A stretch of DNA of 63,976 bases, the filler included, from Perkinsus olseni (lineage: Eukaryota), in the NCBI GenBank assembly GCA_013115125.1. It is 10 parts of 10 records of this genome, joined end to end, with 100 filler letters (N's around TTAATTAATTAA, not from the genome) between each part and the next. Parts side by side here need not be neighbours in the genome. Positions count along the whole stretch, not along the records: positions 52,492 to 58,866 come from JABANN010001101.1; 9 more parts are not named here. One strand, written 5' to 3'. The translations under genes were made by a program, and so were the position numbers. The notes under the pieces were generated by a model. It did no database searches. It had not been told where the DNA came from and saw only the letters and a list, made by a program, of their open reading frames with translations. Below are positions 6,485 to 59,082 of this stretch, one piece after another (within the stretch, counting starts at the first letter, position 1; each line of letters begins with the position of its first letter).

Positions 6485-6584
6485 NNNNNNNNNNNNNNNN
6501 NNNNNNNNNNNNNNNNNNNNNNNNNNNNTTAATTAATTAANNNNNNNNNNNNNNNNNNNNNNNNNNNNNNNNNNNNNNNNNNNN
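6485..6584. other. Artificial contig spacer (44 N + TTAATTAATTAA + 44 N); identical spacers at 13067-13166, 19648-19747, 26227-26326, 32788-32887, 39339-39438, 45875-45974, 52392-52491, 58867-58966
   Basis: Identical 100-nt block with stops in all six frames. The intervening contigs decrease in length from 6484 to 6375 nt. Confidence 0.99.
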
Positions 6585-13066: not shown

Positions 13067-13449
13067 NNNNNNNNNNNNNNNNNNNNNNNNNNNNNNNNNN
13101 NNNNNNNNNNTTAATTAATTAANNNNNNNNNNNNNNNNNNNNNNNNNNNNNNNNNNNNNNNNNNNNTGCGAGGTTATCTATCATCTCGATGCAGTGACTG
13201 CAAGCAAGGAAGATCGATACTGCAATGCAGTGTATAGTGCAGTGTAAACCGACCGTGATATGCCAACGGGGTATGTGGCACTGTTGTTAACAGTCTGTTG
13301 ATATGTATAACGGAATCTGTGGTACTGTTAATATGTGCGACGGAGTATGTGGCACCGCTAGCCCTTCTACGCTACATCTGAGCTAGAAAGGGTCGAGGCA
13401 GAGAGAATATGGGTGAGAGTCTTCCTACGTCACAAAAATTTCATACAAT

Positions 13450-39511: not shown

Positions 39512-40147
39512 CGGGGTGTTCAGTAAACCTATTCCGAAATTCAGAATACATTCCAGCATTAGTTTTGGCGAAATCGCGTTCAGTAAACTGCATCCAGAAC
39601 AGATTCTGGAATGGGTTCCAGAATCGGTTCCCAACATGTTCAGTGAACTTCGGAATCGGTTCTGAAACGCATTCCAGAATGAGTTATTTCGGAATAGGTA
39701 AAACCTATGCTGGGAGTTTCGTGGCGCGTGACATCACAGCTGAGGACGGCCAATTTCGTGATGCCCAGAGCGAAGTACAGAGGGAGTCGCTGGCGAGGAA
39801 CGAACCTGGGCGGTACGAGTGGCGACACAGCCGTCAAACGCACTAGACTACTTGAATGGAGTTTGCCCGAGTTGTGTTATAACCTAGCGAAATCTTTTCT
39901 CGAGCGGCGTGCGCATCGGATAAAACGGATCGCTGCTCTGGATATCGCTCAGTTGGCTGCCAGAAACTATTCTGAGAATCGATTCTCAGAATTGAGTTCA
40001 TTGAACACATCTCGGAACTGATTCCGGAACTCGTTCTGAAATATTTGAGAATAGAGTTCACTGAACAGGATTCGGGAATGCATTCTGAGAATTGATTCTG
40101 AGAACAAGTTCTGGAATAGGTTTTGCCAAAGTTTACTGAACAGCCCG
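39512..40147. mobile_element. Non-autonomous TIR element (MITE)
   Basis: 17-bp TIR CGGGGTGTTCAGTAAAC / GTTTACTGAACAGCCCG (one mismatch) and 3-bp TSD AGA. Subterminal TTCAGT(A/G)AAC and TTC(C/T)GAAT-type repeats are mirrored at both ends. Confidence 0.75.
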
Positions 40148-40505: not shown

Positions 40506-40586
40506 CTTATGCTCGGCTGCTCTTAGACGGTCTAAGAGCAGCCGAGCATAAGGAGGTTTATCACGTCTAAGTTAGACGTGATAAAC
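40506..40586. repeat. Twin perfect palindromes with single-G spacers (23-bp and 15-bp arms)
   Basis: CTTATGCTCGGCTGCTCTTAGAC-G-GTCTAAGAGCAGCCGAGCATAAG, then GTTTATCACGTCTAA-G-TTAGACGTGATAAAC. Confidence 0.95.
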
Positions 40587-48318: not shown

Positions 48319-51300
48319 TTACAAATTCAAACGCTTAGGAGGTCGTACCTCTCGTCGAGGCCGATCCCTAGCAAGAGACCAATCATGGGGAGGCACCTCG
48401 GCGACTTCCTCCGAAGAACTACACTCCTCATTGCTCTCAACACCTTCAGCATTGCTTCGAACACCATCATTGCTTCGAACACCATCACTCTCCTCCCCTC
48501 CAAGATCACCATCTTCACCAACCACCGGGGAAGAGGCCGAACTCGAGGAACTTGTCGAGTGAGGCTGTGCAGATTCATTAGCAGAAAGGCCTGATTCTTC
48601 AGAAGCAAGTGAGGAAACTAAGTCTGACTGGTTAACGGAAACAAAATCTTGCACATCATCTCCTAACGCTGATCTCAAAGCCTGAGAGCCCTGGCTACCA
48701 GAGCCAGAGTGACCGTCGTCATCGTAGTCGGCAACAATACCCTCAACTTCCTCTGCACCATCAGGACGTGCACCATCAACCGAAGCGGGCGCAGATGACC
48801 GCTGCTGCTCGCTTGAAGAACCAGTGCTCTGGACCTCGGGGTCTTGAGGTCCAGTACCTTGTGCCAGAAGGGGCGTAGCACGAGAATCCACGTACTCAGC
48901 AACTATAGGAACTTCAGGTCCATGCTGATAAGGTAGGTCTCGAGCAACCGAACTCTCCGAAGATGACGAAGTCGTTTCTTGCCGTAATAGGTCCAATACC
49001 GCAGTCGGAACTTCTTCTGGTTGAATAGGATCTATAAATAAGTGATCAACACTAATAACCTTAACACGATTAGTAGCAGGGTGGATCACTTCCACCGTCT
49101 TGTTCTCAAGGTTCGGCAAAGCCTTAAGAACATACCAATCACCTTCCCACCTAGGGGATAACTTATTAGCTCGTGCAAGGCCTAAGGTTTCCAAACGAAC
49201 CCTCATACCTGGCCGAAACTGACGTTCTCGACTCTTAGCATTATAGGAGGCCTTGTACGACATGGCCGCCTGAGTAACACACTCATTCACCTTGTCCTGG
49301 ATCATCGCTCTCGTATGACTGATGTATCTCGCAAAGGCCTCAGGGTCAAACAACATGTTTTGAACTTGGCCTAAGGAAGGGAACCATAGATCAGGAGGAT
49401 CTCGTCCATACATCAGATAGAATGGAGAGGCTTTAGTGGAAGAGTGAATACTGGTGTTGTAAAACCAGACCAAAGAACCAAGATGTTGATACCAATCGTG
49501 GGTAGTTTCCACGTGTACTCGAAGCATCTTGAGGAAGGTTTGGTTGAACCTTTCCACCAATCCGTTACCAATAGGATGGTAAACGGATGAACGACTCTTC
49601 TTCACACCAAGAAGGCCTAAGACAAACTTAAACATCCAGGACTCAAAAGGAGGGCCTTGGTCAGAATGAAGTCGCAACGGTGGCCCAAATAACAAAAATA
49701 AATGATATAAAGGCCTGGCAACATCTGCCCAAGTATGTTCCTTAAGCGGAACAACATGCGCCCATTTCGTAAAATAATCTTGTAATACCAAAAGAGCCGA
49801 GATCCCATCAGCATTCTTGGGTACTGTAAGTAAATCTATAGCGACCGTTTCCCAAGGCCTACCAATAGGTACCGGCATCAAAGGGGCTGGCGGCGGTCTA
49901 GACTTCTTGCTGTTGAGGCAACCATCACAGGAAGACACATACTTCTCAATATCTTCTGCCATGCACGGCCAATACGCCAAGGTCTGAACTTTTTCCAACA
50001 ACCGGGGAGCGCCAACATGCCCAACATCATCATGAAATCTCTGAATCATAGTATACCGCAAGCTTGTTGGCACCACCGGAACCCAAATAGGACCAGAATA
50101 CGCAGAAGGCCTTACTTCACGCACAAGTAAATCATCACACACATCAAGAGTTTTCTATACCCTCTTGTAAGAAATGAAGTCAGGTCCCTTAAGCTCAGTA
50201 CGGCTCAGCGGAGTAGCATCTTGAGCTCGGGAAGCAACTTGAGATAAGATACCATCATTCTTCTGAGCTTCCAGAAGATCGGCAAAGGAAAATGCCGGAG
50301 TCAGGACCACTGCATGCGCTCCAGGAACGTGAAGATGACTTCGTTCTACAAGGCCTGAAGCACTAACTTGTGCTTGGGTCACCGACGTCTCACCAGTCAT
50401 ACTTGGATCCAACCGAACTCGAGATAAGGCGTCCGCGGCAGCGTTCTTAGAAGCAGGTACATAAACCACAGTAAACTTGTACTGTTGAAGAGCTAATAGC
50501 CATCTTTGTAGCTTCTGGGAAGTTGCCTTCTCAAGCCACTGTAAAGGCCTATGGTCAGTATAGCACGTAACTTGCAGATCATAACCATAATGAAGATGTC
50601 TGAAGCGCTCAAGGCATTTCATCAACGCATAGGCCTCTTTCTCATAAACAGCCCAATTCAGTTGTGAGCCCGAAAAGGTCTGGCTATAGAAAGCTAAAGG
50701 CCTACCATCTTGCTGTAGAACGCCTCCCATGGCATAATCAGAAGCATCTGACGCTATCTGAAAAGGCCTAGAGAAGTCAGGGTAATCCAGCGAGGGTAAA
50801 CCAACCAAGGCTTGCTTAAGATCAACAAAGGCCTGATCATGAATATCATACCAGCTGTCGTTGGTCAAAACCTCGTCCTTAGCAGAAGCCTTAAGCAACT
50901 CTTGAAGACATCGGGCACGGTCGGAATAGTGTGGAATGAAATGTCGATAATAACCAGCAAGGCCTAAGAAACTTCTAAGCTCAGTCGAAGTCCTTGGGAC
51001 AGGCCAACGAACAATACTATCGACCTTAGCTGGGTCCGGAGACATTCCATCAGCACCATAAACATGGCCTAAATACACCACTTTCCTAAGCCCTAGCGAA
51101 CATTTTTCGCCAGACAAAGTCAAGCCAGCGTCTAATAAGGCCTTAAACACCAACCGAAGATGTTCCACATGCTCCTCAGGAGTACGAGAGAACACGAGAA
51201 TATCATCCAAATAAACACGTACAAAGTCAAACTCGCCGACTACATAGTCCATCAACCGCTGGAAACTTGCAGGGGCTGATGACAAACCAAAAGGCATTCG

Positions 51301-52347
51301 GTTCCACTCATAAAGAGGAAAACCGGGGCCAGGACAAAAGGCAGTCTTATGTCGATCAGAATGCCTAACCTTAAGTTGCCAATAACCACTCCGTAAATCC
51401 AGGGTAGAGAAAATAGTAGCACCAGCCAGATGTTCTTGTACGTCGTCAGGACGTGGGACAGGATAAGCGTCAACCTTGGAGACCTTATTCAAGGCCCGAT
51501 AGTCGATACATATCCTGACCTTACCATTCTTCTTAGCCGCAAACACACAAGGGAACTTATAAGCCGACGTAGAACGCTTGATGACACCCAACTCTTCCAT
51601 CTCCTTCAGCTGCTCTTGCACCTCAACTCGCCACTTGTGTGGTAAAGGCCTAACTCGTTGTACTATAGGCGCAGAGTCCGTGAGAGGGATAGAGTGTTCC
51701 ATCGACTCGCAAAGGCCTGGACGGTTCTTGAAGAGGTCGCCGAATTCCACACATAGCTTAATTAAATCCTTGTAAGCTGGAGAATCCTTGGGAACTTCGG
51801 GGAGCGTCTTGCCAATATCCGTAAAATCGGGGATGGCGAACTGCAAGGCCTGAGCAAGATCATCATCAAGCAAACTGTCAGGTTCCACACCAGGACCGGG
51901 CCATTCTTCCGGCGTAGAAGCAACCTGCTTGACGTCGGAGGACTCGGACCGAAAGCATAGAGGGGTAGCCTCCAAGGGACTAACCTTAGAGGTATCCTTG
52001 ACAGCCGCAAAGACAAGTTTCCCATGCGTAGCGTCAAAGTCAGTAGTCTGGATGATAGGGACCGAACATTCCCAATCTTCATCATGTCGATGTTGAACAT
52101 AGGTATCTTGAGGACTACCTTGGGCTTCTTGATGGTTCACAGAGGAGGTCGACAACAACGTATCCTTTCCTTGAGAAGGCCTAACATCATCATCATCAGG
52201 ACCAACCATAGTCAACCTCGCCGAATCATGAAGCGTAGCACCCAACATAGTAGTCTTCTTCAATAAAGGGTGTATACGAGGAGCTTCACGGGTAGAAGGA
52301 AAACCAAATAATCGAAGAGCCTTCACTATACCCAGGCTCCATACCAA
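48319..52347 (-). CDS. pol: Gypsy pol (RT, RNase H, integrase) with one in-frame TAG at 50155-50157
   Basis: Motifs RICIDYRALN, LDLRSGYWQ, MPFGL, YLDD, SDASDY, YTDHRPL, ADALSR, H..GH...C..C, AIDL, HSDQG and GLVERFN. Both ORFs are in the same frame. Confidence 0.93.
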
Positions 52348-52798
52348 AATGGGTCAGAAAATCATGGCCCAAAATAATCTCATGAGCTAGANNNNNNNNN
52401 NNNNNNNNNNNNNNNNNNNNNNNNNNNNNNNNNNNTTAATTAATTAANNNNNNNNNNNNNNNNNNNNNNNNNNNNNNNNNNNNNNNNNNNNTTCCGAGGG
52501 TTGGTCCTCCCCTTCTGTCGTGTAAGATTTTGCACCGGCCATTAAGAGAGTCAAAACTTCCTCCATGGAGGCATCCGCATTCCACGTGGGGACAATGATC
52601 ATACGACATCCCAATAAAATACGCCACAACAGCTCATTCATACCTGCATCGGGTACCATGTCAGCTGTGTTACTGGTTGAGCTTGGCATAACACAAGGGA
52701 AACACTTGGGAATAGAAGCATAATTATTAGTAGGAATACGCAGGGCAGACTACTAGCCATAGCTTAGCCAAGGGATACGGAGGCACACAAATGGGGAC

Positions 52799-52854
52799 AC
52801 GAGTATCCGACACTAGTAGTGTCGGATACTCGTACTGTAGTGTCACACTACAGT
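52799..52854. repeat. Twin perfect palindromes with 1-nt spacers (17-bp and 10-bp arms)
   Basis: ACGAGTATCCGACACTA-G-TAGTGTCGGATACTCGT is immediately followed by ACTGTAGTGT-C-ACACTACAGT. Confidence 0.95.
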
Positions 52855-53021
52855 CATACTACTGAAGACTACTGACTTGAATCGCTGGTGCGGGTAGGGT
52901 GCGTGAGGCCGAGGTCTGACGCGGCTAAGCTTCTCGACCCCTCCCCCTTTTGCCCCCCTCCCGCGTATCCTCGCGATGACTTATCTCCCTAGTCTTCATT
53001 TGATACTCTTACTCAGTAGCT

Positions 53022-53999
53022 ATGCCTAAAGCTCGTGCATCCAGGCGGAAAGCTACTTCACCGGCCTCTAAGCCACTAAACAAGAAGAAACGCCTCACCC
53101 CGGTAGCCTCTAAGCCGAGTACTACAGGTGAACCTACTAAGTTGGTTGCTCAGCAACAATTTCCTGTCTCCCCTCTCCTGAGCCCAGCAGCTGCTCTCTC
53201 ACAACCTAATACTATCAGGGAGGACCCGGTACATCCACCGGACGCGGTATCCTTAACTGATCTTGACTCACAAGTGCGAGATTTCATCAACAATCAATAT
53301 CACCATTCTCCTCATGCTCATCCTGTCCCCCCCTTACCGGACACGTCCTCACCCATGGTTCAGAAACCTCTATCAATGCCGGGGCATCTTATGGCTCCGC
53401 TTTACAGCAAGTGGTCTTCCTTGGAAATGTTCCTCGATCAACCATGGTTCGCCTATATACCAACTTCGTGGTCTCGAGTAAAGGGGGTCAACATCGACAA
53501 ACATACTGAGACTTACTCCGTCGCGGCAGTTACCATGTCAGCCATTGGCTTTGGGACTCGCCTAGCCCACGCCGGTGTTATCAACAGCACGACTGCTCTG
53601 ACTATCATTGGAAAAGTGGTAGATTGCTCGTTCGGCCTGAATGGTACTCTCAAATCACGTCATGAACTCGACAAAATGATTACTATGTCGTTGGGCTTAG
53701 TTCAAGCACGCGAAGTGGCCAACGCCGATCTGTCAACTACTAACCCGGTCGATTCTGTGCTCAACTCTGCCTTGAACCATTTTGAAGGGTTCAGCCTACC
53801 TCCACCAAAACTAGATCGCACTGCAACCTCTTGGAAGAAGCAGGGTTGGAAAGATCAGGATCGCTGGACTTCTAAGCAGAAGTCTGGGAGCAACTGGCAA
53901 GGCAATTGGCAAGGCAATGGTTGGTGGTGCGATGAAGGATCTAAATCTAAAGCACGACAAGCGGAAACTTCTGACAAGCACAGCAAACCCTCGTCCTAA
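53022..53999 (+). CDS. ORF1, putative Gag-like protein of the YR retroelement
   Basis: 325 aa, with a basic/Pro-rich N-terminus and a W/G/K-rich C-terminus. Assigned by position upstream of RT. Confidence 0.7.
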   Translation: MPKARASRRKATSPASKPLNKKKRLTPVASKPSTTGEPTKLVAQQQFPVSPLLSPAAALSQPNTIREDPVHPPDAVSLTDLDSQVRDFINNQYHHSPHAHPVPPLPDTSSPMVQKPLSMPGHLMAPLYSKWSSLEMFLDQPWFAYIPTSWSRVKGVNIDKHTETYSVAAVTMSAIGFGTRLAHAGVINSTTALTIIGKVVDCSFGLNGTLKSRHELDKMITMSLGLVQAREVANADLSTTNPVDSVLNSALNHFEGFSLPPPKLDRTATSWKKQGWKDQDRWTSKQKSGSNWQGNWQGNGWWCDEGSKSKARQAETSDKHSKPSS

Positions 54000-54185
54000 G
54001 CCTTGTAATATTGCTGTTGTCCTACCCTTTCTGCCCGGAATGGGACACTCATTTACCTAACTCCTTCTCATCAGATTGCTAAACCATATCAGTAGTACAA
54101 CGAATTTTACACCATCAACTCATCCTTGATCACCTCTTCTACAGTCTCAGCTACCAAGGGTCGAGTTCTTAGTCTCGTTCTTACT

Positions 54186-56366
54186 ATGCCTGTAGCTATT
54201 TCTGCAATGTCTGCAAATGTCGATTCACCCCGCCCGACGAAACTTTCACGGCGAGGCTCTAGAAGCAAGACCAGCGAATTTATTCGAAGGTCTCGTCAAG
54301 CCTTACAACATGTTGGTTTACACGAGCTCATAGAGATTATACTTTACAAGAAAATCATTGTCCTTAGGCCTAAGGACAATTCTAAGATTATCTATGGGTA
54401 CCCACCTTGTTCCAAGAAGCTTCATACTCTCATACATGCCGAGGAGCTCTCCTGCCATATCACATCACCCGAAGAACATCTGCTTTGGGCGTTGGGTCAG
54501 GATTTTCTTCCACAAGAAGATGTCCTACTACCCACAATGTTACAGGCCACTATAGCTTTACAGAACGAACTCACTCAAAACCAGCTAACCTGGTTGCGGG
54601 CTCACAACAAGCTGCACATCACTTCTTGGCTCGGAACCTCTCCTTCTGGCGAAGAACTCTACTGGAGGAATCAACTTATCAAGCCGGTACCATCCAATTG
54701 GCGACTGGACCGTATCATGAAGTTGCTACTCATCACTAACCATCGAGATCAAGATTTACCTTTCTTTTCGGCTTCGGGGTTTCCCTTAACGGGGATCATT
54801 CCCGATGGAAACTTGTATCCTCGTCTCTCACGACCCAGGGTAGAATTGTACCCTCCCGAAGCTCTCACTGTGAGCAAAAAGTCTTTGTCCTCCATCACAG
54901 CCTACTTACAACGATCTTTCAACGACGAACACTTGAACGAGGCCATCATCAAAGACGTCCACTCGGAGGTCGCCCTGGGCCGGGCATGGGGCCCTTATTC
55001 ACTGGTGGATCTACCGTCTCAAGCAAGCTTCGTTTCACCGCTTTTTGCCATCTCCCAACCGGACAAGATCCGCTTGATCTCAAATTATTCCTATCGGTCA
55101 GCGGGGAAGAAATTGAATGGAGCGATGTCCATACACCACAAGGTTCAATTTCCTCGCCTTCTTCATGTGGCTAAGATTGTTAAGCTGTTGCACGTCCGAG
55201 GTCAAAAAACTATCTACCGCATTGACCACAAAGCTGCCTACCGCCAACTCCCGGTGAGGGAAGAAGATTGCTGGCGTGCATGTGGCCTTTTTCTAGATTC
55301 ATTCTCATCACCGAGTATTGTGGTCCCTCGCAGATGCCCCTTCGGGGCAGTGGCCTCAGTAACAAACTATCTGAGGACATCAGAAATGATGAGCCATCTA
55401 GCTCGATGTTTGGGTATCATCAATCGAATGGCCTACATGGACGACTACTTCGCTGTGGAGTGCGTCCATTCCGCTTTGGACGCACAACAGTTCTTTTCAT
55501 TTCTAAATGAACTCATCGGCGCAGAGATCAAACATGAAAAAGATGTTCCTCCGTCAGAGTCATTGGTTCTTCTAGGTTTACAAATTGATCTCAGTACTAA
55601 TGATTTCACCGTGACGGTTACTCCAGATCGTCGTTTGAAGTTGAGAGAGCACCTTCTACGAATACAAGGCGATCATGCTCGTATCGATTCTAAATTGACC
55701 GGGAAATTATCATTCTGTTGTGAAGCTTTATATGGTCGGTCGGGTAGAGGTCCTGTCAGGCTCTTGATACGCAAGGCAGCTGGGTTACCAGTGGATGATG
55801 ATCTGGTTTCACAGGCGATCTCTCTATTAGTCGACATCTTCGCTTCACCACCCCCTTGTGCATATCCACTTGCCGACTTAAATACCCGACTTCAACCGTA
55901 CATATGTTACGCAGATGCGGCTACATCTACTGGCAACATTGCAGTTTATGGGCCTCCCCAGCTTGGTCTCTCTGCTCTGTACTCAATAGTTCCTACAGGG
56001 CTCCATGATAACATCAACATCCTCGAATTTCTGGCATTGGCAGTGGCAATTACAACATTCCACAACAAGGTTCCCCAACAGCCCCTGAGAGTCTTCTCGG
56101 ATAGCAAGGTCGCGGAGCTAGCTCTCCTCAGAGGAAGTAGCTCCTCTGGGCTTCTTTGCCTAGCGATACATCATTTCTGGCTGGAGTTAGCTCACTTACC
56201 ATCTTTTGTCTTCTTTGTTGCTCACGTTAAGTCGGGGTGCAATCCTGCTGATGCCCTGTCTAGAAATAATTTCGATGTCATATGGTTGAATGACGCAGTA
56301 CTCTTACCCGCATCTCTCCCACAATGGTGTTCTGATCCCGCTTTTGGCGTCTCGGGGTCACTATAG
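54186..56366 (+). CDS. Reverse transcriptase-RNase H of the YR retroelement
   Basis: RT motifs KIRLI, IDHKAAYRQLP, PFG, YMDDY and LLGL. RNase H motifs YADAA, INILEFLA, FSDS and NPADALSR. Confidence 0.93.
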   Translation: MPVAISAMSANVDSPRPTKLSRRGSRSKTSEFIRRSRQALQHVGLHELIEIILYKKIIVLRPKDNSKIIYGYPPCSKKLHTLIHAEELSCHITSPEEHLLWALGQDFLPQEDVLLPTMLQATIALQNELTQNQLTWLRAHNKLHITSWLGTSPSGEELYWRNQLIKPVPSNWRLDRIMKLLLITNHRDQDLPFFSASGFPLTGIIPDGNLYPRLSRPRVELYPPEALTVSKKSLSSITAYLQRSFNDEHLNEAIIKDVHSEVALGRAWGPYSLVDLPSQASFVSPLFAISQPDKIRLISNYSYRSAGKKLNGAMSIHHKVQFPRLLHVAKIVKLLHVRGQKTIYRIDHKAAYRQLPVREEDCWRACGLFLDSFSSPSIVVPRRCPFGAVASVTNYLRTSEMMSHLARCLGIINRMAYMDDYFAVECVHSALDAQQFFSFLNELIGAEIKHEKDVPPSESLVLLGLQIDLSTNDFTVTVTPDRRLKLREHLLRIQGDHARIDSKLTGKLSFCCEALYGRSGRGPVRLLIRKAAGLPVDDDLVSQAISLLVDIFASPPPCAYPLADLNTRLQPYICYADAATSTGNIAVYGPPQLGLSALYSIVPTGLHDNINILEFLALAVAITTFHNKVPQQPLRVFSDSKVAELALLRGSSSSGLLCLAIHHFWLELAHLPSFVFFVAHVKSGCNPADALSRNNFDVIWLNDAVLLPASLPQWCSDPAFGVSGSL

Positions 56367-56465
56367 CATTTTTTTCCGAACTATCTTACTCGCTTTTGTT
56401 CTCCACTGGTTCGAAATGGTCTTCACTGAAGACTCTTCAGGAACAACAGGGTTCTCCCATATAAC

Positions 56466-57527
56466 ATGCCACCGTACATTCAGCCCCTGCCAGCAGAGCC
56501 TCTTCTACTCACGGTTCTTCACAACCCTACAAGACTCCACGAGAGTATGGTAGCAGCTTCTGTTCTCACTATCACAGATCTCTATTACTGGAAGCCGCCT
56601 AACTTACCATCAGCCACAGCAATCAAACTTCACATGGTTAAATCTCACCCTGACTTTACAGCTGCCCTCCTAGCCGATGGGTTGCCTATTCTACCACATG
56701 ATGAGCAAGTATATCTCGACCAACATCTTGCGCCCACCACATGGAAGTCTTACCGATCTGCACTGAAGTCTTTCATCGTCTGGCACTGGCGGAACTGGCC
56801 ACGTCGACCTATCTTTCCTACGCAAGCAGTCGTCATACGTAGATTCATAGCAGCTGACCCTGTCCATGCCCGGTATGTCACGGCCTTGAAGAAAATACAT
56901 ACCTTATTGTCGTTACCCATACTCTTCGAGGATGGATTGACCAAATCTATAGTTAAAGGAGCTTTCAAAGTCCTTAATGCTCGTAAATTCCCCCGCGTTT
57001 TCATTTCATTTGACGACTTACAACACATAGTTCGGATTGCACACGCGCACAACTGGATACTTTTCTCTAGTTTGTGCGTTTTAGCCTACTACTTTGGTGT
57101 TCGGGTGCCTTCGGAACTCTTGGATCTGCATAATCGGGACCTCATCGTCTCAGGCTCCTCTGTGTATTTGCGCTTACATCGCCGCAAGAGATCGAATCGC
57201 CCTTGCCATTTGTATCGCAAATGTACATGTGCTACTTTCGGAAAGGATCTGTGCCCAGTAGAAGCTGCCAAAATCATTAATCTACATCAGTCACATAGTA
57301 TGTCCTTGTCTAGCTTTAACAGATTACTCAAACAGTGTGCTGCAGTGTGCCCCAAACTTGATTCCCACCATATCAGCTCTCATGGTTTTCGCAGGGGTTT
57401 TACTTCAGACATAGCATTGTCCCAGGCACCACAACATCTCATCGATAAACTAGGGGGCTGGTCATCTCCGAAGTCCAAACACCACTATCTCTCACATCAG
57501 GCCGCACTATATCTGGCTAAAACGTAA
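56466..57527 (+). CDS. Tyrosine recombinase
   Basis: LAPTTWKSY N-terminal helix, then GVRVPSEL (R), LCPV, HGFRRG (HxxR), LGGWSS and the HY catalytic Tyr. Confidence 0.93.
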   Translation: MPPYIQPLPAEPLLLTVLHNPTRLHESMVAASVLTITDLYYWKPPNLPSATAIKLHMVKSHPDFTAALLADGLPILPHDEQVYLDQHLAPTTWKSYRSALKSFIVWHWRNWPRRPIFPTQAVVIRRFIAADPVHARYVTALKKIHTLLSLPILFEDGLTKSIVKGAFKVLNARKFPRVFISFDDLQHIVRIAHAHNWILFSSLCVLAYYFGVRVPSELLDLHNRDLIVSGSSVYLRLHRRKRSNRPCHLYRKCTCATFGKDLCPVEAAKIINLHQSHSMSLSSFNRLLKQCAAVCPKLDSHHISSHGFRRGFTSDIALSQAPQHLIDKLGGWSSPKSKHHYLSHQAALYLAKT

Positions 57528-57845
57528 CCTTATATGATATAAGTTATATCATTCGGCTTCATTTCATCGGTTTGCTCCACCTCATCATTTCACTTATCTA
57601 CGAGTTGTAATTGGGTTACTCAGTTCGAGCTCTCCATCGACGGGAGGAAGAGAGCTCGCACGAGAGGGAGTGAGCTACAGTAGCTACATATGAGCTACGC
57701 TACAGCTCCAACCTCAAGCCTCAGCGCGCTAAGCGACGAAGGGAAGGACGCACGCTGACGAAGGTTGGAGCTCTCATCGCTTCTCACTCCCCAACGCATC
57801 TTAGAAGCGTGACGGAGGTTCAACCATCGAGGCGTGTATGAGAAA

Positions 57846-58793
57846 CAGTGTGGCTGACGGACAGAATAAATCGTGGAAAATTTTCTCTTGAAAATTTTCG
57901 ACAGAAAGAAAAGAAAAATAAGAAAAAATAGAAAATTTACGGAAAAATAGGGACGAAAATGCAGAAATCTCCCGGAACCAGGGTACTTAAGTTGCAGATT
58001 TAGGATAAATCAATATCGGCCATCACGATATCAGCGACGTTTCGACATTCCATAGGAGCAGTACTGAGTGAACGAGATTTATAGGCTTTGCCAACCCTTC
58101 TCCGTCCGCCTAGCGCTCTAAATTTGAACCGTTGGTGATCGGAGGTAGCCTACCGCCGGTAGGTGACCGTCCATCTGCACAAGTCGTACAGTATCATGCT
58201 CGTCGCGCAACAAGCTAGCTACGCATGAACATCGGATATTACAGCAACGTATGGCCTTGTCACCGAGATAATTATCAGGTTTATCAACAGGAAATTCATG
58301 CCGTGAAATGCAAGACGTGATTATCCCATATCTCACGATCTAGATCGAGGCAGCTGTTGTTTTTCAAGAATTTTCTTCATAGTGCAGAAGCTGGACGGAA
58401 GGTGCGGGCCTTGTTGTTCGGGTCCCTTTGAACTCCGAGACTCCCGGATCGGGGGTTTAGCTCCCCCGAAATCAAGTCGTGTCACATACAACTCTGTTTG
58501 ACTTGAGCGCAAGCACTGACACCCGGAATCTACACAGTGCACGGTGACACTGTATAGCTGGGAGCTCCGCCGTACATTAGTGACTAATGATTTGTCGGTT
58601 AGACCGTAATACGGTGGCAGAAAAAATTCATGAAAATACCCCAAATTCGCTCCAGAACAGCCATTTTTTCAATTTTTTCCTTCGGGCGCGCGCTTTCTGC
58701 ATTTGAACAGAAAAATAGATTCTGTTATATGTTCGGAAATTTTTGAAAATTTCGAACAGAAAGATGAAAATTTTCATTGTGTCAGCCACACTG
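57846..58793. mobile_element. Non-autonomous hAT-type DNA transposon (948 bp)
   Basis: Perfect 13-bp TIR CAGTGTGGCTGAC / GTCAGCCACACTG and perfect 8-bp TSD ATGAGAAA (57838-57845, 58794-58801). Subtermini are GAAAATTTT-rich and there is no transposase. Confidence 0.9.
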
Positions 58794-58966
58794 ATGAGAA
58801 ACACAACGGAAGCTTGTGTTATCATACGCGCTGTTGATGGGCGCGCGCTTTCAAACGGCCAGCACGNNNNNNNNNNNNNNNNNNNNNNNNNNNNNNNNNN
58901 NNNNNNNNNNTTAATTAATTAANNNNNNNNNNNNNNNNNNNNNNNNNNNNNNNNNNNNNNNNNNNN

Positions 58967-59037
<71 letters not shown>
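58967..59037. repeat. (AAC)n microsatellite at contig start
   Basis: About 23 AAC units. Confidence 0.95.
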
Positions 59038-59082
59038 GAACAAGAACCGCATCATTATAACCGTTGGTAGATATCGAACTCC

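Follow-up and report, generated by a model that had tools for sequence, protein, structure and literature searches.

The stretch of DNA analysed here (the window, 63,976 bases of assembly GCA_013115125.1 of the shellfish parasite Perkinsus olseni) consists of ten unplaced contigs, sorted by size from 6,484 down to 5,010 bp and joined by linkers of the form N44-TTAATTAATTAA-N44 (window positions 6485-6584, 13067-13166 and so on to 58867-58966). Its ninth contig, likewise unplaced (52492-58866; 6,375 bp), hosts a retroelement that encodes a reverse transcriptase with RNase H (RT/RNase H) and a tyrosine recombinase (YR). Artificial N linkers bound this contig on both sides, so that features across a linker are not genomic neighbours; a preliminary description of the locus had named DNA upstream of 52492 and beyond a hAT insertion at the right as places where canonical repeats might come to light, but the contig ends at the linkers. 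Within the window, blastn and tblastn searches revealed no other copy of any part of the contig and no other relative of its RT or YR, and Rfam and tRNA scans of the contig gave no match. The element carries three open reading frames (ORFs):

53022-53999, + strand: ORF1, 325 amino acids (aa), gag-like by position only, with a basic N-terminus and a W/G/Q-rich C-terminus
54186-56366, + strand: ORF2, 726 aa, reverse transcriptase and RNase H, with YMDD at residues 417-420
56466-57527, + strand: ORF3, 353 aa, tyrosine recombinase

Gene content and relatives of the element

All three ORFs are open, with spacers of 186 nt between ORF1 and ORF2 and 99 nt between ORF2 and ORF3. A Pfam scan of the three (E <= 0.01) recognised no methyltransferase (MT) family, in agreement with the preliminary description, which had reported separated ORFs lacking such a domain, and no family beyond RVT_1 and Phage_integrase; neither a protease nor a DDE integrase was found. 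The match of ORF2 to RVT_1 is weak (E 0.005), and in a 13-sequence alignment the YMDD motif and residues D419, D420, D577, E614, D639 and D689 are invariant; RNase H forms the end of ORF2, with no C-terminal extension. ORF3 matches Phage_integrase with 32.2 bits (Pfam cut-off 27.1) over profile positions 4-169 of 172, and a by-eye reading of its sequence alone recovers an R...HxxR...Y pattern in common with P0001. The latter, a single P. chesapeaki protein of 1,082 aa, is the best relative and spans both genes, with 52% identity to ORF2 over 717 aa and, in its C-terminal part, 55% identity to ORF3 over 340 aa. Neither ORF3 nor the RT profile matched a solved structure in a search by sequence. 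ORF1 has no Pfam family and no relative among the proteins searched; its best score in an Atlas look-up was 0.86 (all below 0.9), which is a lead only.

An RT/RNase H ORF accompanied by a tyrosine recombinase ORF, with no protease or DDE integrase, is the gene set of a YR retrotransposon, in the order DIRS taken broadly. Among these, Ngaro elements (Goodwin & Poulter 2004) have split direct repeats in the layout A1-ORFs-B1-A2-B2, as set out in passages of PMC3783388 and PMC6681497, and the element resembles them in its order of gag-like ORF, RT/RNase H and then YR, as well as in having no methyltransferase, protease or DDE integrase. DIRS1 and PAT-like elements are also YR retrotransposons with RT/RNase H; however, the inverted terminal repeats and internal complementary region (ICR) of DIRS1, the split direct repeats of PAT and the Dam-like N6-adenine methyltransferase that DIRS1-like and PAT-like elements carry in pol were not found here. 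VIPER/TATE, as described in part of PMC6681497, are kinetoplastid elements with split direct repeats. Judged by gene content and order, the element would thus work like a Ngaro-type YR retrotransposon, and it lacks every hallmark of DIRS1 and PAT that was looked for.

A profile built from ORF2 and three relatives was searched against 1.84 billion representative proteins and matched 5,857 of them at E <= 0.001 and 148 at E <= 1e-30. Names were looked up for 30 of the best 150 matches: the six named by organism, all among the 20 looked up first and none among 10 further ones, are all from Perkinsus (five from P. chesapeaki and one P. olseni cluster), and the other 24 come from metagenome or run assemblies. 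A Pfam scan of 38 long relatives recognised RVT_1 and RT_RNaseH among them; five of the 38 have a C5 DNA methylase at the N-terminus, as in the SymbioDIRS-Dnmt3 design, none carries a Dam-type MT, and past the RT/RNase H part Pfam recognised no domain in any of them. SymbioDIRS and SymbioDIRS-Dnmt3 of Symbiodinium (de Mendoza et al. 2018, PMC5890265, in the part available to us) share with the Perkinsus element a divergent RT that barely matches RVT_1 and a separate YR ORF, and RT homologues fused to an N-terminal C5 DNA methylase, as in SymbioDIRS-Dnmt3, are among the relatives of ORF2. Unlike them, the Perkinsus element has no DNA methyltransferase (DNMT) domain, and the A-coding-B-A-B repeats reported there were not seen.

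Relationships among the RTs were explored with a FastTree phylogeny of 104 rows and 522 columns, aligned to the profile with hmmalign (117 sequences of at least 560 aa, minus 13 with fewer than 380 filled columns); the tree is unrooted, its rows include no labelled DIRS, PAT, Ngaro or VIPER sequence, and FastTree is prone to joining long branches. ORF2 forms a pair with P0001 (support 100), to which P0002 and the P. olseni protein P0009 are joined (99); this group falls within a nine-row clade (99), with the DNMT-bearing rows in a separate clade (99). The tree, which shows nothing more, places the predicted RT of ORF2 within a clade centred on Perkinsus, from which the DNMT-bearing clade of dinoflagellate type is separate. 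The preliminary description had proposed a possibly distinct lineage with a different priming or circularisation scheme; the separate placement of the RT stands, whereas the basis for a new scheme is lost (see below). Among the nearest entries in an Atlas look-up of the RT, again a lead only, were one Perkinsozoa cluster and one RT cluster of Basidiomycota, fungi reported in PMC3783388 to hold Ngaro elements. Searches of viral and metagenome contigs yielded no confirmed DNA of relatives.

In the literature searched, no paper describes YR elements of Perkinsus; the sole mention, in the portion of PMC3266345 available to us, is one table entry that names Perkinsus marinus among species with DIRS1-like GenBank sequences. 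The YR elements found in Perkinsus include a deep and diversified clade that is as yet undescribed.

Copy number, terminal repeats and ends

The sequence around the genes was compared with reads of runs X1 and X3, which stem from two studies and one of which is possibly the assembly's own source, and of run X7, from a related isolate; copies were detected at >=85% likeness. The ratio of flank to element depth in a further run, X9, which is RNA by guess only, resembles that of the DNA runs. Together with the contig sequence, the reads delimit the following features, among them a miniature inverted-repeat transposable element (MITE) with its terminal inverted repeats (TIRs) and target site duplication (TSD), and the untranslated regions (UTRs) of the element:

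52492-52813, - strand: left flank, outside the element; belongs to a host gene family with many copies, of which it holds the upstream end and 5' region, with an ATG at 52689 reading leftward
52849-53021, + strand: 5' UTR; the start is approximate and is taken as the first base past the multi-copy flank match, with the scar described below set aside
57551-57645, + strand: single-copy stretch of the 3' UTR, within the unique unitig; a second locus matches from 57646
57646-57840, no strand: repeated sequence, of which 57646-57740 is present in 2-4 copies and 57741-57840 in about 18 copy-equivalents
57846-58793, no strand: hAT-like MITE of 948 bp, with 13-nt TIR CAGTGTGGCTGAC and 8-bp TSD ATGAGAAA at 57838-57845 and 58794-58801

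X1 and X3 each yield one unitig of 5,008 nt that spans 52763-57770 with 0 differences. Its depth (72.6 in X1 and 44.1 in X3) equals that of unique pieces of the adjacent MITE (72-94 and 39-48, respectively), and since the unitig is unbroken, none of its 31-mers recurs elsewhere. At the >=85% threshold, 52882-53021 and the bins from 52918 to 57603, with 57391-57603 among them, stand at single-copy depth in the reads, with no second copy of a UTR. The element is single copy.

Within the contig, the longest family of direct repeats measures 22 nt, and inverted pairs bridging its two ends have lengths of 22-27 nt and only 70-77% complementarity, none of them lying at the ends of the element. Smith-Waterman comparison of 52814-53021 with the 3' region, from which the MITE and one copy of its TSD had been removed, gave scores of 18 (direct) and 16 (inverted), reached by 137 of 300 and 247 of 300 shuffles, respectively; when both ends were compared with the element interior, no match exceeded the shuffles and none was ICR-like. 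A young Ngaro-type element is expected to have A1 identical to A2 and B1 identical to B2. Neither UTR has a twin in the read sets, and the absence of inverted long terminal repeats (LTRs), ICR and split direct repeats noted by eye in the preliminary description therefore holds for this copy, with repeat search, shuffled alignments and read depth in agreement. This copy is without DIRS-type or Ngaro-type terminal repeats, a result that applies to this copy only.

Both flanks are repetitive. On the left, the 65-aa N-terminus that starts at 52689 is 95% identical to P0161, a hypothetical protein of P. olseni without a Pfam family. The depth of this flank is 995-1690 against 72.6 for the element, i.e., 14-23 times higher, and other contigs arrive from far left; the high-copy unitig stops at 52813, beyond which the other X7 copies differ in sequence. 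Even with 3 mismatches allowed, PmaSL1 (PMC3101222) is not matched anywhere in the window; a spliced-leader-like appearance of 52752-52775, noticed by eye, was dropped.

On the right, summed depth rises upstream of the MITE from 160 (at 57676) through 245 and 335 to 1332 (at 57805), with loose read ends ahead of 57741 and past 57838-57840. Three contigs (3,041, 12,708 and 759 bp) carry 57646-57840 with 14 differences and have unlike flanks. The segment 57741-57840 is a self-pairing module of about 100 nt that occurs in several contexts with sharp ends and forms a hairpin in the centroid fold; no TIR or TSD was seen for it. The hAT insertion recognised in the preliminary description is confirmed by its TIRs and TSD and by a MITE-free form in X1, X3 and X7, in which 57837 is joined to 58794 (skipping 956 positions), with loose ends at 57846 and 58793. 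One X7 contig links the last stretch of our contig (58814-58866) back to 57740, and the 3' flank may thus be directly or tandemly repeated in the X7 isolate. The 3' end of the element lies between 57551 and 57840; of the "intact" element first described, then, the three open ORFs stand, but the limits do not, in a contig of 6,375 bp between N linkers.

Palindromes as probable excision footprints

The 5' flank carries twin palindromes, a perfect one of 17+1+17 nt at 52799-52833 and one of 10+1+10 nt at 52834-52854, and the flanks fold more stably than expected by chance (z = -5.65 for the 5' flank and -3.51 for the 3' flank). The twin palindromes had been described previously, as had an overlapping palindrome behind the YR stop and further stems downstream, and their presence is not in doubt. 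What they represent is a different matter. Small perfect palindromes with arms of at least 9 nt are abundant in the window, with 29 arm/loop combinations compared with about 1.7 in shuffled sequence, and the 5' pair has a distinctive geometry: ...GACACTA is followed by a centre g and the reverse complement, and then a reverse complement is followed by a centre c and ACACTAC.... A TSD can be rebuilt from either palindrome: on the left from the seven bases that precede the first centre, followed by that centre's complement, and on the right from the second centre's complement, followed by the next seven bases. Left and right return the same 8-mer, GACACTAC, at all eight positions. Fifty shuffles contained 0.08 twin palindromes on average and no TSD-consistent one.

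We scanned the window for all pairs of odd palindromes that obey this footprint rule, i.e., two palindromic tracts that derive from one 8-bp TSD, each having the complement of a terminal base of that TSD as its centre. The 64-kb window holds 13 TSD-consistent footprints (10 of them at 8/8 positions), whereas 100 shuffles hold none; four lie in the contig of the YR element. The dominant form is a 22-mer composed of TSD positions 1-7, the reverse complement of the TSD and TSD positions 2-8, with centres 7 nt apart; apart from the scars of the element, nine such stereotyped 22-mers were found, seven at 8/8 and two at 7/8. The scars are as follows (no strand is assigned):

52799-52854: twin palindrome scar with long P-nucleotide tracts; TSD GACACTAC; centres 52816/52844, 8/8
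56419-56440: 22-nt scar in the ORF2-ORF3 spacer; TSD GTCTTCAG; centres 56426/56433, 8/8; holds the second in-frame stop
57529-57550: 22-nt scar directly after the YR stop; TSD CTTATATC; centres 57536/57543, 8/8
centres 58149/58156: scar inside the MITE, by the same odd-palindrome rule, 7/8
other centres: 7773/7780, 15100/15107, 16461/16468, 39061/39068, 42625/42632, 44183/44190, 44255/44262, 44657/44664 and, as above, 58149/58156
40506-40586: long twin palindrome, 23+1+23 nt, then gag, then 15+1+15 nt; TSD CTTAGACC versus CTTAGACG, 7/8; in a contig without RT or YR

The copy in the X7 isolate provides a check on the scar at 57529-57550, the one for which this comparison was made: 14 nt are absent at 57530 and one CTTATATC is left, which is the unscarred site that the rule predicts. 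There is no X7 indel at 56419-56440, and the spacer scar is therefore common to both copies. Palindromic P-nucleotide tracts of this kind are reported as footprints of Ac/Ds (hAT) transposons in plants, Saccharomyces cerevisiae and Candida albicans (PMC5873905, in part), and hairpins in flanking DNA are formed during transposition of hAT, Transib, RAG and MULE elements (a passage of PMC5499845). As in the Ac/Ds footprints in the same part of PMC5873905, the tracts are centred on the complement of the transposon-adjacent base, the duplication is 8 bp and the arms reach about 20 nt; unlike there, a single 22-nt outcome dominates, and the scars are very dense, at 13 in 64 kb. The 22-mer form would be explained by two long-opened hairpins joined through their common 8-nt reverse complement. 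The multi-copy MITE with its 13-nt TIRs and 8-bp TSD, which lies 300 nt away, is a candidate for a hairpin-forming transposon of hAT or MULE type. Judging by these sequence signatures, the palindromes at 52799-52854, 56419-56440 and 57529-57550 are read as hAT-type excision footprints with an 8-bp TSD and not as parts of the element. We found no paper linking Perkinsus to hAT footprints in the literature searched. Two other explanations of the 5' palindrome, a YR recombination site and head-to-head elements, were dropped, as the footprint model predicts the centres and the TSD exactly; no further copy of a 15-nt palindrome arm was found.

These assignments bear on the earlier view that hairpin-rich flanks take the place of terminal repeats in this element. 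The palindrome behind the YR stop is present, but it is not part of the element, the X7 copy being without its 14 nt. The further 3' stems are likewise present, but most of them, including AGGTTGGAGCT and CTCACTCCC, fall within the dispersed repeat at 57741-57840; the stem CGAGCTCTC/GAGAGCTCG (57626-57658) straddles the boundary between unique and repeated sequence and is unexplained as a scar. With two groups of hairpins being hAT-type footprints and others belonging to a dispersed repeat, the hairpins do not qualify as termini of the element, and the basis on which a new scheme of priming or circularisation had been proposed disappears.

The spacer scar also affects the layout of the genes. 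The starts of ORF1, ORF2 and ORF3 (53022, 54186 and 56466) share one reading frame, which in the case of ORF2 and ORF3 is due to the 14-nt scar insertion in their spacer; readthrough was considered and rejected, there being three stops between ORF1 and ORF2 and two between ORF2 and ORF3. Once the 14 nt are removed from the spacer, the frame of ORF3 is open for 54 codons more, from an ATG at 56290, and overlaps ORF2 by 77 nt; a run of 54 codons would stay open by chance with a probability of about 0.075. The result hints that the non-overlapping ORF2/ORF3 layout is at least partly secondary to the scar. An overlap of the YR and RT ORFs is termed frequent in the YR order in a passage of PMC6681497.

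Separately from the scars, two perfect even palindromes of 24 nt (12+12, no centre base) are present at 54357-54380, inside ORF2, and at 39969-39992; the former coincides with no change of length relative to the P. chesapeaki relative, and neither fits the odd-centred scar rule. Elsewhere in the window, the contig before that of the element carries an ORF of 697 aa (50155-52248, - strand) with RVT_1, RT_RNaseH and RT_RNaseH_2, which is a piece of pol from a Gypsy-type LTR retrotransposon and has no relationship to the YR element, and the last contig starts with a long (AAC)n microsatellite (58967-59040).

Readings of the locus and their consequences

Collectively, the locus is probably best read as a single-copy, Ngaro-like member of a poorly described Perkinsus YR clade, the hairpins of which are scars and a dispersed repeat and the distal repeats of which have most likely been lost. 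Under this reading, the element would have been transcribed and its cDNA made by ORF2, after which ORF3 would have inserted the cDNA by site-specific recombination, with no target duplication. hAT-type transposons would then have inserted and later excised, leaving the footprints at 52799-52854, 56419-56440 and 57529-57550, and the distal repeats may have been lost from this copy, e.g., by recombination between B1 and B2 or by truncation. There are precedents among fungi: in PMC3783388, the phrase "without or with incomplete repeats" applies to most of the catalogued YR elements, and a Ngaro with RT, RH and YR is reported to have no terminal repeats. A truncated Ngaro of Neosartorya fischeri and other fungal YR remnants described there are likewise lone, RT/RH/YR-coding, repeat-less copies amid mobile elements; the Perkinsus copy differs in having three complete and apparently constrained ORFs.

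The comparison with the X7 copy, which is about 3% diverged (92 differences in 2,981 nt), illustrates this constraint. Five indel events separate the copies, at 52942, 52948, 56368, 57530 and 57680, and fully account for the listed gap counts; all five fall within the approximately 561 non-coding nt and none within the approximately 4,178 coding nt, so that ORF1, too, is free of indels. By our own arithmetic, the chance of such a distribution is (561/4739)^5, or about 2e-5. Confinement of indels to non-coding sequence points to reading frames under selection, and the frames are kept indel-free as expected of a lineage that was once, or still is, selected for coding capacity. The scars add a temporal dimension: with one in common with the X7 copy and one (57529-57550) private, this copy has been resident long enough for two visits. 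The copy is not demonstrably young, and the previous suggestion that it is has no support, because it is single, has no identical repeats, has a scar in common with a copy about 3% diverged and has since gained another.

Several observations weigh against the preferred reading, at the edges of the element as well as in its classification. At several places in 52492-52762 the reference letter is carried by no X1 or X3 contig (there, the depth of other letters equals the total depth), and these first 270 nt of the contig may represent a consensus over copies of a repeat. The sequence that continues beyond 52813 in the other X7 copies of the left flank was not found downstream in the contig; as the multi-copy flank is not resumed there, the locus is not readable as a simple bounded insertion. 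Moreover, the left boundary lies inside the TSD of the 5' scar, which requires a hAT insertion exactly at the junction, a coincidence for which we have no explanation. The split direct repeats A1-ORFs-B1-A2-B2 that define Ngaro are absent from this copy, which is accordingly not filed as a proven Ngaro member, and as the tree has no labelled references, the Ngaro likeness is judged by gene content and order, with the Atlas lead to a Basidiomycota RT cluster pointing in the same direction. The loss of repeats is itself inferred, with no second copy in the window, and the family could truly be repeat-less. Finally, a fully open gene set of 4.2 kb in a lone, repeat-less copy is unusual for a dead relic.

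Alternatively, in line with the preliminary description, the element would be a complete and competent copy of a distinct YR lineage which is genuinely free of terminal repeats and finishes or circularises its cDNA by other means, e.g., through terminal secondary structure. The contig has no repeats and the read sets no second UTR copy, the ORFs are open and their coding sequence free of indels, the RT clade is separate from the DNMT-bearing one, and the stem CGAGCTCTC/GAGAGCTCG and the 3' UTR are not accounted for by scars. Nevertheless, this is unlikely: the most striking hairpins are hAT footprints, and one of them, being absent in the X7 copy, is not essential; the remaining 3' stems are located in a module with about 18 copies, which also occurs in other contexts, whereas the element is single copy; a competent element is expected in more than one copy; and the related dinoflagellate elements are reported with A-coding-B-A-B repeats in the part of PMC5890265 cited above. 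It is likewise improbable that the locus represents a repeat-less Perkinsus YR lineage with its lone copy under purifying selection, be it through repeat-independent replication or as an RT-plus-recombinase module adopted by the host.

The latter possibility can be framed more narrowly as domestication, with an immobile former element turned into a host-selected, single-copy cluster of RT/RNase H and YR genes. The single copy, the missing terminal repeats, the open ORFs, the restriction of all five indels to non-coding sequence relative to the diverged copy and the spacer scar present in both copies are all compatible with such a fate. In X7, however, the 5' part is represented by no fewer than two diverged variants (depths 17 and 82), a pattern more in keeping with a small family than with a single orthologous gene, and ORF1, a gag-like protein with no known host role, has also been retained; we therefore regard domestication as quite unlikely.

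A complete Ngaro-type element, with A2 and B2 located past the end of the contig (58866) or on the far side of the MITE, is suggested by the proximity of that end, only 65 nt past the right copy of the MITE TSD, and by the X7 joint from 58866 to 57740, a possible sign of direct repetition of the 3' flank. In such an element A2 is a second 5' UTR and B1 starts after the YR stop, yet 52882-53021 and 57528-57645 are at single-copy depth, the unitig 52763-57770 is unbroken and the repeated 3' module has about 18 copies and not two, all of which makes this arrangement very unlikely. An assembly artefact, i.e., a chimeric contig in which the interior of an element was joined to unrelated repeats, is extremely unlikely: the contig is short, unplaced and repetitive at both ends, and the reference letters in 52492-52762 have no support in X1 or X3 contigs, but in the runs of two studies, one of them possibly the assembly's own source, the unitig extends across the left junction and the two 5' palindromes without a single difference.

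YR retrotransposons are the least understood order of retroelements, and models of their replication depend wholly on the layout of the terminal repeats; a real repeat-less member would matter, if true. The evidence presented here removes the basis for claiming a repeat-less mechanism at this locus, as the hairpins are what other transposons left behind as scars and only one copy, with ill-defined limits, is present. At the same time, hAT scars can be used as relative time marks inside another element, as exemplified by one scar in common with a diverged copy and one private to the copy studied. For small palindromes found beside any feature in this genome, the 22-nt scar pattern is the first thing to check against.

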